Below are positions 34,421 through 40,789 of a DNA stretch of 64,000 nucleotides, in pieces (position 1 is the stretch's first letter; every line of letters begins with the position of its first letter). The notes below the pieces were generated by a model. The model saw only the letters and a list, made by a program, of their open reading frames with translations, had not been told where the DNA came from and ran no database searches. The stretch comes from Parcubacteria group bacterium Gr01-1014_3 (GTDB lineage Bacteria > Patescibacteriota > Minisyncoccia > UBA6257 > WO2-44-18), in the NCBI GenBank assembly GCA_007376445.1, contig VMGF01000001.1, forward strand, positions 21,802 through 85,801. Direction: 5' to 3'. Position numbers and translations under genes: made by a program.

Positions 34421-34748
34421 ATATTCAGTATAACAAAAAGCGCCCGGATTAACCGAGGCGCCTTTTGTAAGATCAAGAGTCCAAAACTTTGTAGTTGCCC
34501 CATAATCCGCTGAATTTCTTCAGCTGATAATCGAGACTTAAGGCTCCTCGACTAAAACCTTTTGCCTTATTTGCATAAGGCTACCGACTAACTTACTAAC
34601 AAACCGAAGTTTGAAAGTTTTAATTTAAATGATCCACGCACAGCTTCCGCTACGCGTGCCTTGTTACGACTTAGCCCCTGTTACCGATCCTACCTTGATC
34701 CACCGAAGTGAACTTCAGGTATTACCAGCTTCCTTGACTTGACGGGCG

Positions 34749-35595
34749 AATATTTTCTCTAAAACTAGAGAATTGATGTTCCCACCGCACGGACGGTTTT
34801 CCCGTATACGGCGAGCTCAATGCATTTTTTGCTTTAGCTTATAAAGATCACGCAAACCGCTAGGAATAAGGTGTTCGCCTTTGCGGATCCTACGCATAAT
34901 CTCACAGAAAATTTGGAAATCGTACCTCTTTGAAGGAAATCGTAATCGATTTTCTTTGAAAAACGGTATAATTATTTCTGCCAAATCTGTTCTGTTAGCT
35001 ACTTCGAAACGATAGCAATGCTGATGATTTTCGCGATTGTCTTTTTGAAAGTAGACATTCCCGCATTTAAAGTATTCCTTTAAAGCATCCAGTATTACCT
35101 TATCCTTTTCGATAAGCTTTACGTAAAATCTAGGCTCTATCTTTACTCTTCTAGTTGTTCTGTTGATTTGATCAGGATTACGAACATAAGCAGTAAAACT
35201 GCCTTCGCCATCCACCAAACCAACGATGTAATCTTTAGTTAACATTGAGTGAGTGCCTTCATCCCGCTAATCGAGACTACTATGACTCAGCTGACTTCTG
35301 ACGCTGCGTCAGTTTTATGATACCTCGATATTGCTATCGAGAACAGCATCAGATCTCCACAGGTCACGTAAAATTCTCTTCTTAGCATCCTAGACAAGCC
35401 GTAGATAAAGTCTTCCCCGCCCTCACCACCCACTGGCAGGTCGACTGGCTTTGTTAATGTCTGGCTGTTATTTGCTTTCAGATCCTCCACCGAACACCTC
35501 GCGATGCTCGGCTATCTTTTAGCTACGTTCCGATGACGGACATCGGAAGAATGGATTTTAACCATTTAGAAAATTACGCTGCTGCGCGCTTTTAT
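34749..35595 (-). mobile_element. self-splicing-type intron (847 bp) in 16S rRNA near the helix-44 base (E. coli position about 1400), carrying a LAGLIDADG homing endonuclease ORF
   Basis: conserved CCTGTACTCAC | ... | CGCCCGTCA junction is split by non-rRNA sequence containing ORF 34817-35245. Confidence 0.7.
34817..35245 (-). CDS. LAGLIDADG homing endonuclease (intron-encoded)
   Basis: YIVGLVDGEGSF dodecapeptide motif, size 142 aa, located inside 16S intron. Confidence 0.8.
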   Translation of the reverse strand: MLTKDYIVGLVDGEGSFTAYVRNPDQINRTTRRVKIEPRFYVKLIEKDKVILDALKEYFKCGNVYFQKDNRENHQHCYRFEVANRTDLAEIIIPFFKENRLRFPSKRYDFQIFCEIMRRIRKGEHLIPSGLRDLYKLKQKMH

Positions 35596-35912
35596 TGTGA
35601 GTACAGGACTCGAGAACGTATTCACCGTGGTATAGCTGACCCACGATTACTAGCGATTCCAGCTTCATGAGGGCGAGTTGCAGCCCTCAATCTGAACTGA
35701 GGCCATTTTTGATGGGATTAGCTCCGCCTTGCGGCTTGGCAACCCTTTGTAATGGCCATTGTAGCACGAGTGTGGCCCAGGGCATCAGAGGGCCATGCGG
35801 ATTTGACGTCATCCCCGCCTTCCTCCGTGTTAAACACGGCAGTCTCCCGCGACATATAAAACGCAGGATAGGGGTTGCGCTCGTTAACCCACTTAAGGGA
35901 ACGCTTCAAAGT

Positions 35913-35944
<32 letters not shown>

Positions 35945-36067
35945 TCACGTCCTTGAGAGACGACGCACCTTTCGGCGCGTCTTCGTGACCATTTCAAGCC
36001 CTGGTAAGGTTCTTCGTTTATTGTCGAATTAAACCTCATGCTCCACCGCTTGTGCGAGTCCCCGTCT

Positions 36068-36099
<32 letters not shown>

Positions 36100-36609
36100 T
36101 CCCAGGCGGTCAACTTAACGCGTTAGCTACGCCACTCCGAGGGTCGATACTCGAAACAGCAAGTTGACATAGTTTAGGGCGTGGACTACAAGGGTATCTA
36201 ATCCTTTTTGCTCCCCACGCTTTCGTGCAATGAGAGTCAGGAGTGCTCCAGTTAAATGCCTTCGCCTTTGGTATTCCTCACAATATCAACGGATTTCACC
36301 CCTACACCGTGAGTTCTATTAACCTCTAGCACCCTCTAGTCAGGCCGTATCTTCTGCGAGCTTCCCGTTGAGCGGGAAGATTTTACAAAAGACGCACCCG
36401 ACCTCCTGCGCACGCTTTACGCCCAATAAATCCGGATAACGCTCGTGGCCTTCGTATTACCGCGGCTGCTGGCACGAAGTTTGCAGCCACTTATTCCATG
36501 GGTACAATCAATAACTTTTTCCCCATTAAAAGCAGTTTACGATCCGAAGACCTTCATCCTGCACGCGGCGTCGCTCGATCAGACTTTCGTCCATTGTCGA
36601 ATATTCTCG

Positions 36610-36652
<43 letters not shown>

Positions 36653-37419
36653 CGTTGGGGATCAGCCTCTCAGCCCCCCTACCGGTCATAGCCTTGGTGA
36701 GCCATTACCTCACCAACTAGCTGATCGGACCTAGGCCGCTCCCGAAGTGACTTGCGTCTTTCGTCTTTCGACAATATCGGACATTAGTCTATCTTTCGAT
36801 AGATTATTTCCGTCTTCGGGGTGCGTACCAAGGTGTTACTAACCCGTTCGCCACTATACTTTTATCTCTCTTGACTTGATATAATCTCATCTTAATTAAC
36901 AAAAGTACCGTTCGACTTGCATGCCTTATCCACGCCGCCAGCGTTCATCCTGGACCAGGATCAAATCCTCAAAAAAAATTACCGAACATTGAATTTATTT
37001 TAGTAAATTCACCATTCGCTAACTGTTGGGACAACTACAAAATTCTTGACTAAATTTTGACTCGATCTTGATTTTTAATTCTTGGTTGTGTATACAACAC
37101 ACTGCAATTTTCGAAGTTCAGTCGGCTGCGCTTTTTTAATAACGCATCCGGCCCGCTCTCCCTGAATCCCAGAGGGAACCGGCCGGATGAATTAAAACCT
37201 TTATTCACTTGTCGCCTATCTGTGAAAAGAAGTATATATGAAAGCGCTGTTTCGTGTCAACTGTCACAAAACAGCGAATTTTCAATTCTCAATTTTGCAA
37301 TTTTTGTCCCTTCGGGACATCTCCTGTAGGAAGACAATTAATTTACAATGAATTAATGTCCAAACAGTTTGATAATTTTATTTTAAGCATTGAATGAAAA
37401 TTGGTATTTGGAAATTGAA

Positions 37420-40233: not shown

Positions 40234-40290
40234 ATTCTTTCCTCCATTCAACGAACCGCCTACAAAGTAACAGTTTCAACACAAAATCAC

Positions 40291-40362
40291 AAGTACTATC
40301 ACGCGTGATAGTGCCCACCGCTTTCCCCATAGGAAAGTACTTTCCTATGGGGAAAGCGGTGG
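40291..40362. promoter_or_regulatory. palindromic operator cluster P2
   Basis: CTATCACGCGTGATAG plus 45-nt palindrome CACCGCTTTCCCCATAGGAAAGTACTTTCCTATGGGGAAAGCGGTG. Confidence 0.5.
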
Positions 40363-40655: not shown

Positions 40656-40708
40656 CTGAAATCCTTTCAAGGTACGACCACACTCTACAATAAAAAGGCT
40701 TATTTCGC

Positions 40709-40789
40709 AAGTACTATCACGCGTGATAGTACTATCCCATGTGATAGTGGCGAATATTCCATTATCCAGCCATGGCTGGATAATGGAAT
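40709..40789. promoter_or_regulatory. palindromic operator cluster P3
   Basis: CTATCACGCGTGATAG, CTATCCCATGTGATAG, TTCCATTATCCAGCCATGGCTGGATAATGGAA. Confidence 0.5.

Follow-up and report, generated by a model that had tools for sequence, protein, structure and literature searches.

The 16S rRNA gene in the 64,000-nucleotide stretch of Parcubacteria group bacterium Gr01-1014_3 analysed here (contig VMGF01000001.1; the whole stretch is referred to as the window) is interrupted between C1399 and C1400 by an insert that is very probably a mobile group II intron of the small class C (IIC) type, with a LAGLIDADG homing endonuclease (LHE) in the loop of its domain 4. Judged from its coding content, the intron appears to have lost its reverse transcriptase (RT), or never to have had one, and to carry a single-domain LHE instead. 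A first-pass annotation of this DNA had reported, at the CUCAC^CGCCCGUCA junction of the 16S gene (a caret marks an exon–intron or exon–exon boundary throughout), an intron-like element whose single-motif LAGLIDADG gene is intact. Reading of the junctions and of the open reading frame (ORF) bears this out, except that the reported end at 35595 and length of 847 bp were one base short. The gene and its insert are laid out as follows:

35597 to 36976, minus strand: 16S exon 1, the 5' 1380 nt of the gene, ending at C1399 (Rfam SSU_rRNA_bacteria match and junction reading).
35601 to 35597, minus strand: proposed intron-binding site 1 (IBS1), CUCAC, the last five bases of exon 1 (junction reading).
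34749 to 35596, minus strand: complete intron, 848 nt, consisting of a ribozyme of ~419 nt and a 429-nt ORF (same boundaries in 13 homologous loci).
34622 to 34748, minus strand: 16S exon 2, with C1400 as its first base, containing helices 44 and 45 and the 3' tail (match to the Rfam small subunit (SSU) rRNA model).

The boundaries were read from the minus strand, where the two junctions are ...CCUGUACUCAC^AAUAAAAGCG ... AAAAUAUU^CGCCCGUCAAG or, in a longer reading, ...GAGUCCUGUACUCAC^AAUAAAAGCGCGCAGC ... UAGAGAAAAUAUU^CGCCCGUCAAGUCAAGG... The two junctions have no bases in common, which leaves no ambiguity in the boundaries as long as the mature molecule and other 16S rRNAs are colinear. This colinearity is shown by the predicted ligated sequence TGTACTCACCGCCCGTCAAG, which is found uninterrupted in at least 120 metagenome contigs. 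The predicted ligated junction is GUACUCAC-CGCCCGUCA, and reads spanning it would carry GUACUCAC-CGCCCGUC. The interrupted strand is the single-stranded decoding-centre strand of the 16S rRNA. From the universal 1392-1406 block we take the site to be C1399^C1400 in E. coli numbering. This assignment agrees with the label 'position 1400' used for insertions in the literature (PMC11270868).

Automatic annotation misses this arrangement. The Rfam SSU_rRNA_bacteria match, 35550..36976(-) with 1319.5 bits, runs 47 nt into the intron and claims the model end at 1533, leaving out the real 127-nt exon 2. A separate Rfam scan of 34560-34760 recovered the missing 3' part at 34622..34748(-), corresponding to model positions ~1400-1533, with 73.6 bits. 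The expectation in the first-pass annotation that 16S callers might mis-size the gene was thus correct, and the same overrun with loss of exon 2 was seen in two homologous loci (L001 and L003). PCR primers flanking position 1400 would give a product 848 bp larger, and primers of the 1392R/1406R type mismatch the base at position 1396 (see below).

Homologous introns were collected from 13 other loci, four of them from a protein scan of species-representative genomes and nine from contigs encoding close homologues of the endonuclease. All 13 lie inside a 16S gene and at exactly the same junction, GUACUCAC^AAUAAA.GCG (AAAAUCUGCG in L004) ... AUA(A/U/C)U^CGCCCGUCA (with U at 1400 in L010). The recurrence of this arrangement in 13 other loci is far beyond chance. 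The intron-bearing 16S lineages compared are 80–99% identical; the closest, from a metagenome assembly (L005), has a 16S 99.1% identical to that of the window and an LHE 94% identical. At 16S position 1396 (window position 35600) the near-universal A1396 is replaced by U (GUACUCAC) in the window, and U1396 is also present in 13 of 13 intron-bearing relatives and in the at least 120 intron-less metagenome contigs. Two of the loci have peculiarities of their own. L010 has a U after the intron (L010:2999; ...GAUACU^UGCCCGUCA) instead of the universally conserved C1400; the change may be genuine or a sequencing error. L004 (DATJQC010000094.1) is labelled 'Candidatus Nanoarchaeia archaeon', yet its 16S matches the bacterial SSU model and its intron is of the Parcubacteria type; it is probably a mis-binned contig of the candidate phyla radiation (CPR).

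General expectation would favour a group I intron, since such introns with a LAGLIDADG gene are the rRNA introns met most often in CPR bacteria and LAGLIDADG genes are usually found in group I introns. Group I models match 35% of CPR 16S and 45% of 23S insertions (PMC11270868). However, the comparison with group I models that the first-pass annotation had proposed came out negative, there being no match to any Rfam group I family between 34400 and 37200 even at E ≤ 10. In contrast, the Rfam family group-II-D1D4-1 (RF01998) matches at 35254..35345 with 37.9 bits, above its gathering score of 35, a group II domain 5 match is present as well, and a six-domain group II fold is supported by covariation. 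The group I reading is effectively refuted, and we give it next to no credence. On its sequence and predicted fold the insert is a group II intron, with a small IIC-like ribozyme. All six domains (D1 to D6) are present, D1 and D2 from RNAalifold and pair counts and D3, D4 and D6 as read from the sequences:

35587 to 35596, minus strand: 5' leader, AAUAAAAGCG, 10 nt in place of the 5-nt GUGYG, of which GCG alone is invariant (alignment).
35358 to 35586, minus strand: domain 1, with stems I(i) and I(ii), hairpins IA and IB, a single IC arm with a GCGA tetraloop, and the ID arm (RNAalifold).
35415 to 35440, minus strand: exon-binding site 1 (EBS1) hairpin, terminal on the ID arm, with a 13-nt loop ending GGUGAG (direct reading).
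35297 to 35353, minus strand: domain 2, with the base UCUGA x UCAGA and a distal hairpin (RF01998 match 35254-35345 and covariation counts).
35250 to 35296, minus strand: joining segment J2/3 and domain 3, AGUCAGC UGAGU CAUAGUA ... GAAGG C ACUCA (RF01998 alignment).
34816 to 35249, minus strand: domain 4, with the basal stem CUCAAUG x CAUUGAG and the endonuclease ORF as its loop (direct reading).
34817 to 35245, minus strand: 142-aa LAGLIDADG_1 homing endonuclease ORF, intact and single-domain, with the motif IVGLVDGEG and catalytic Glu14.
34782 to 34814, minus strand: domain 5, with a 9-bp lower helix, a CC bulge, a 4-bp upper helix and a GAAA(A) loop (partial match to RF00029, 20.5 bits).
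34755 to 34772, minus strand: domain 6 hairpin UUCUCUA GUUU UAGAGAA; the domain including its tail occupies 34749..34772 (direct reading).

The D1-D2 fold was obtained by RNAalifold on an 11-sequence alignment of the 5' halves, and contained compensatory changes in 57 of 84 pairs. Two of the predicted helices, exon UACU with AGUA in D3 and AGC with GCU at the leader, were invariant and in conflict with group II architecture, and were removed. After this removal, 93.0% of cells were paired, compared with 35–43% when the partners were slid by 1–3 columns, and 57 of 77 pairs had changed on both sides, compared with 15–24 in the slid controls. None of 500 shuffles reached the observed values. J2/3-D3 carries the conserved sequence AGAAGUCAGC...CAUAGUA...GAAGG, which is similar to that of Oceanobacillus iheyensis-type IIC introns, and the basal stem of D3 (UGNNN x NNNCA) covaries among the loci. 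Both the AUG start and the UGA stop of the ORF lie in the basal stem of D4, and the coding sequence therefore occupies precisely the D4 loop. In D5, 100% of cells are paired, five pairs covary and the base U-CGC / G-U-G-G does not vary; the CGC triad is likewise invariant, with a G.U wobble at the triad G, and the triad and bulge positions are conserved. D6 is a 5–7-bp hairpin followed by a 6-nt 3' tail, AAUAUU, and by direct reading covariation among the 13 introns is seen at four of its five innermost common pairs. Two further pairings were considered and dropped: an extension of D6 between AUC of the linker and GAU of the tail, where the tail base is A or G while the C is fixed and there is no covariation, and a leader–tail pairing (AAUA x UAUU) that works in the window's clade only.

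The EBS1 loop matches the site in detail. Its GUGAG (35426-35422) is the exact complement of the CUCAC at the end of exon 1 (1395-1399), the A of this motif pairing with U1396. The base before GUGAG, G (and Y), complements C1400 (and G1401), so that the loop can hold both exons, being complementary to both sides of the junction. GUGAG is present in all 11 aligned sequences and GGUGAG in 10 of them, L010 having AGUGAG instead; each of the 6 stem pairs covaries.

Assignment to class C follows from the invariant CGC triad, the small size (848 − 429 = 419 nt of ribozyme), the single IC arm and the lack of a second exon-binding site (EBS2), no loop for which was found in the predicted fold. Unlike canonical members of the class, the insert contains no class C RT/maturase ORF, lies inside an rRNA gene, not after a terminator or attC hairpin, and lacks the 5' GUGYG. 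Nor does it end in the 3' AY of group II introns, the last two bases being UU in the window and AU in 7 of 12 distinct relatives.

The endonuclease ORF holds YIVGLVDGEGSF, includes the motif IVGLVDGEGSF and matches Pfam LAGLIDADG_1 over residues 7-117 (E = 2.5e-16). When the protein was searched against PDB sequences, its whole length aligned to each half of the monomeric I-OnuI family (best E = 8.5e-26), and to the single-domain I-TnaI (5gkk, 4.9e-13) and 3e54 (6.1e-09). An AlphaFold2 model built with 30 homologues (mean pLDDT 94, pTM 0.87) has the order helix-strand-strand-helix-strand-strand-helix followed by C-terminal helices, and Foldseek gave TMq of 0.80-0.85 to I-OnuI-type halves and 0.80 (TMt 0.77) to I-TnaI. 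The single LAGLIDADG domain is therefore upheld by the predicted structure as well as by the motif. The ORF is under strong purifying selection, since dN/dS by the Nei-Gojobori method against the two closest relatives is 0.027/0.48 and 0.10/1.09, or about 0.06–0.09. Among the 30 homologues 41 columns are invariant, including D12-G13-E14-G15 of the motif. The only other ORF in the insert, of 67 aa at 35287-35490, was treated as spurious, since it matches no family and falls within D1 helices that covary.

Because the protein is a single LAGLIDADG domain, and single-domain LAGLIDADG proteins imply homodimeric enzymes, a homodimer is the expected active form. One CPR enzyme, I-ShaI, which belongs to a 23S group I intron, has been shown by experiment to dimerise (PMC11270868). 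The predicted intron-less target is TGTACTCAC^CGCCCGTCAAG, or in longer form ACGTTCTCGAGTCCTGTACTCACCGCCCGTCAAGTCAAGG. A pseudo-palindromic endonuclease site was sought in it and dropped; no cleavage centre could be proposed.

Several observations weigh against a mobile group II intron. The Rfam family Intron_gpII (RF00029, which covers D5-D6) aligns 34776..34816 as D5 with the 20.5 bits given above, below its gathering score of 40. The extreme 5' base is A rather than G, with GUGYG shrunk to GCG after the leader, and the penultimate base of the intron is U (AAUAUU) in the window's clade, where A of 3' AY is usual. No conserved bulged branch adenosine was found in D6 across the introns, the base after the stem being A or G. 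Excision and ligation are predictions from the DNA sequence. The DNA target is palindromic only to a small degree, no centre giving more than 5 of 11 symmetric positions, a low figure for a homodimeric enzyme. Lastly, a search for an intron-less relative at ≥97% 16S identity found none, the best being only 85–86.5% identical, and transmission may now be mostly vertical, with no recent gain or loss documented. Shifting the splice boundaries so that the intron would begin with canonical GUGYG is not possible, since intron-less alleles fix the ligated sequence and the junctions share no bases. A 5' terminal linker, the same deviation of the termini, has been described for accepted group II-LHE families (PMC13190283).

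The unusual 5' end and the missing branch adenosine would also be consistent with an insert that is not spliced with ligation at all. The gene would then be a disrupted pseudogene, or a host RNase would remove the insert and leave a fragmented 16S, as with the intervening sequences processed by RNase III; removal of this kind without ligation is known in bacterial 23S rRNA (cited in PMC11270868). However, the catalytic core (D5 triad, bulge, tetraloop, J2/3 and EBS1-IBS1) is conserved with many compensatory changes across the 80–99% identical 16S lineages, which is unexpected for a dead insert. Both exons are well conserved, and this is the sole 16S gene seen in the window. A nick between C1399 and C1400 of the decoding-centre strand would moreover be unlikely to be tolerated. 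We regard an unligated insert as improbable.

Splicing, its chemistry, the activity and specificity of the endonuclease and present-day mobility are inferred from these features, as follows. The intron would be transcribed as part of the pre-16S RNA, and the GGUGAG loop of D1 would pair with CUCAC of exon 1 and the first base or bases of exon 2, setting the junction on the catalytic centre formed by D5 and J2/3. The 5' junction would then be cut by hydrolysis rather than branching, a preference for which we put the chances near even and which rests on two features: a 10-nt leader stands where GUGYG is expected, and D6 has no bulged branch adenosine. The same association with hydrolysis is made in PMC13190283, where one such fungal intron nevertheless still forms lariats. 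Ligation of the exons would give ...GUACUCAC-CGCCCGUCA... and restore the decoding-centre strand. The endonuclease, expected to act as a homodimer, would cut intron-less 16S alleles around the site, and repair from the intron-bearing copy would spread the element. Such spread would have to be DNA-level homing triggered by the endonuclease, not retrohoming, because no RT is encoded. Empty sites that could receive the intron are abundant in metagenomes.

Mobility is where a further possibility enters, namely that the intron is vertically inherited and immobile, with the LAGLIDADG protein kept chiefly to assist splicing as a maturase rather than as a nuclease. Maturases are known among the LAGLIDADG proteins of group I introns, I-AniI being one, and the strong purifying selection on the ORF, the weakly palindromic target and the LHE identity, which roughly tracks 16S identity among the loci, would all fit such a role. 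However, the catalytic Glu of the LAGLIDADG motif and its neighbours are invariant in 30 homologues, and intron-plus and intron-minus alleles coexist across the clade. A maturase role has been shown for no group II LHE, and lariat splicing of rns-952 without its LHE is cited in PMC13190283. A domesticated intron is thus unlikely, if a shade less so than an unligated one, and if correct would leave the identification of the element unchanged.

A group II intron with an LHE at this CPR 16S site has already been reported, and the window intron is a clean but ordinary example of the combination that leaves current understanding unchanged. Tsurumaki et al. (2024, J Bacteriol, PMC11270868) described 53 group II-like insertions in CPR rRNA genes, all at 16S position 1400 ('16IS9'). 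Among them, 39 of 53 carried LHEs, mostly LAGLIDADG_1, none carried an RT, and DNA-based homing was proposed. The window intron fits every feature of this description: the CPR / Parcubacteria host group, the site label 1400, the Rfam group II call, the single-domain LAGLIDADG_1 protein and the absence of an RT. That study gives no secondary structure, boundaries or EBS/IBS analysis for these insertions, and the enzyme characterised there, I-ShaI, is from a 23S group I intron, not from the 1400 site. The Gr01-1014_3 genome is not listed in one of its supplementary files. CPR rRNA group I introns with single-domain LHEs, such as that of I-ShaI, resemble the window intron in host group, endonuclease superfamily and the expectation of a homodimer, but differ in ribozyme class and splicing chemistry.

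Group II ribozymes with LAGLIDADG ORFs in mitochondria were reportedly described by Toor & Zimmerly (2002) and Mullineux et al. (2010), and the Thiomargarita rns-1396 introns reportedly by Salman et al. (2012). Like the window intron, the fungal and green-algal mitochondrial introns (rns-788, rns-952, rnl-2059 and others) combine a group II ribozyme with a DNA endonuclease instead of an RT and lie in rRNA genes, and many of them have a 5' linker and a degenerate D6 (PMC13190283). They differ in being organellar, with IIB1, IIB2 or IIA1 backbones, mostly double-motif LHEs and an ORF that is sometimes in D3 or D1. IIC introns of the Oceanobacillus iheyensis type share the small ribozyme (~420 nt), the D5 CGC triad, the lack of EBS2 and a short IBS1, whereas canonical IIC introns start with GUGYG, encode a class C RT/maturase and retrohome after terminator or attC stem-loops.

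The nearest design is that of the rns-1396 IIC-LHE family (Liu et al. 2026, PMC13190283), found in Thiomargarita and relatives and a few CPR. All its members have a 5' terminal linker, lack EBS2 and carry a single-motif LHE in DIV. Its supplementary tables, our source for the Thiomargarita introns, give the site GUACA^CACCGC (1396/1397), the EBS1 loop UGUGUAC and a seed starting AAAUAAAUGCGCCUGGCAG. The window intron is colinear helix for helix with the seed FR690945, with 51–55% identity over the 5' ~320 nt, and shares the 10–11-nt 5' leader ending GCG, the single-motif LHE in DIV and an EBS1 loop whose sequence complements the ligated junction; EBS2 is absent from both. It differs in its site, GUACUCAC^CGCCCG, 3 nt downstream of GUACA^CACCGC; in the host base, which is A1396 there and U1396 here; and in the EBS1 loop, which is 7 nt (UGUGUAC) there and 13 nt ending GGUGAG here. 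Since families are defined by insertion site in PMC13190283, the window intron is not a member of rns-1396 but is a sister lineage of the same design.

Among the introns compared, host base, site and loop go together: hosts with A1396 have the site 1396/1397 and the loop UGUGUAC, while hosts with U1396 have the site 1399/1400 and a loop ...GGUGAG (13 of 13 loci here). We tentatively suggest, as a reading that is somewhat more likely to be wrong than right, that the window intron represents a separate and very abundant Parcubacteria IIC-LHE lineage, re-registered 3 nt downstream of the rns-1396 site. If so, it would be a natural target-site shift of an endonuclease-mobilised group II intron, perhaps triggered by a host escape mutation, A1396U, that broke the old IBS1 pairing, and the exon-binding loop of the ribozyme and the cleavage register of the endonuclease would have changed together. 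This 3-nt re-registration, with matched EBS1 loop and host base, is the sole aspect of the intron that we have not found described.

The element is of wider use as a well-preserved group II ribozyme that appears, from its sequence, to have given up retromobility in favour of DNA homing, and that lies in one of the ribosome's most conserved strands. The endonuclease has more than 1200 homologues at E ≤ 1e-10, mostly unnamed, the few named ones being from Parcubacteria / Patescibacteria. Such a large family is a possible source of compact (142-aa) homodimeric meganuclease scaffolds and of small, ORF-independent class C ribozymes for splicing studies.

Several of the homologous loci carry additional insertions. 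A two-hairpin insertion of 45–63 nt is present in the base of D5 in L005:1830-1942 and L013:2927-3056, between the G pairing with the triad C and the U pairing with the triad G, and would turn the catalytic helix into a junction. Extra insertions of ~200 nt in D3 of an otherwise homologous intron (L002:45-1107) and of ~265 nt in D1 of the L006/L007 introns (L006:1884-2996) may be nested elements. Further ORF-bearing insertions occur elsewhere in the 16S genes of L008, L009, L010 and L012; they comprise LAGLIDADG_2 ORFs upstream of the 1400 site, another near the 16S 3' end in L010, and a 23S_rRNA_IVP ORF in L008.

The CPR host proposed in the first-pass annotation is established by protein identity. 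The LHE is identical to TSC89583.1 ('Uncharacterized protein') and the neighbouring L31 protein to TSC89585.1, both from Parcubacteria group bacterium Gr01-1014_3, and the host is this Parcubacteria metagenome-assembled genome. The Rfam SSU alignment reveals no other large insertion in the 16S gene of the window, which thus has one intron only. The helix 6 region (~36860-36900) has a 32-nt expansion compared with 3 nt in the bacterial SSU model, and there are several deletions relative to the model. The rRNA genes are unlinked: an Rfam scan of the window found neither a 23S nor a 5S rRNA gene in the 34 kb upstream and the 27 kb downstream of the 16S gene. Genes of type IV pilus type (N_methyl pilins, T2SSE ATPase) follow the 16S gene in the window and in L006/L007, L008, L011 and L012, and L008 and L010-L013 also have a response-regulator gene after it.

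The 3' end of the 16S rRNA (34622-34640, minus strand) reads GGAUCAUUUAAAUU, compared with GGAUCACCUCCUUA in E. coli, and the anti-Shine-Dalgarno (anti-SD) sequence is absent from it. CCUCC was likewise found in none of the 12 relatives whose 16S 3' tail falls inside the 190 nt displayed (L012 is cut off; L004 and L010 have further insertions there). Loss of the anti-SD in a Parcubacteria subgroup has been reported earlier (PMC9297842). SD-like motifs precede 7 of 45 long ORFs in the window, compared with 10% of random 17-mers, and TATAAT-like boxes lie 5–12 nt upstream of about ten of 40 listed starts, which suggests leaderless mRNAs. Finally, two copies of an 18-bp perfect palindrome, ACTATCACGCGTGATAGT, lie 420 bp apart, together with a degenerate third copy (40287-40362 and 40705-40748), and a 48-bp perfect palindrome occupies 40315-40362. 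All lie amid small ORFs and look like operator or recombination sites.

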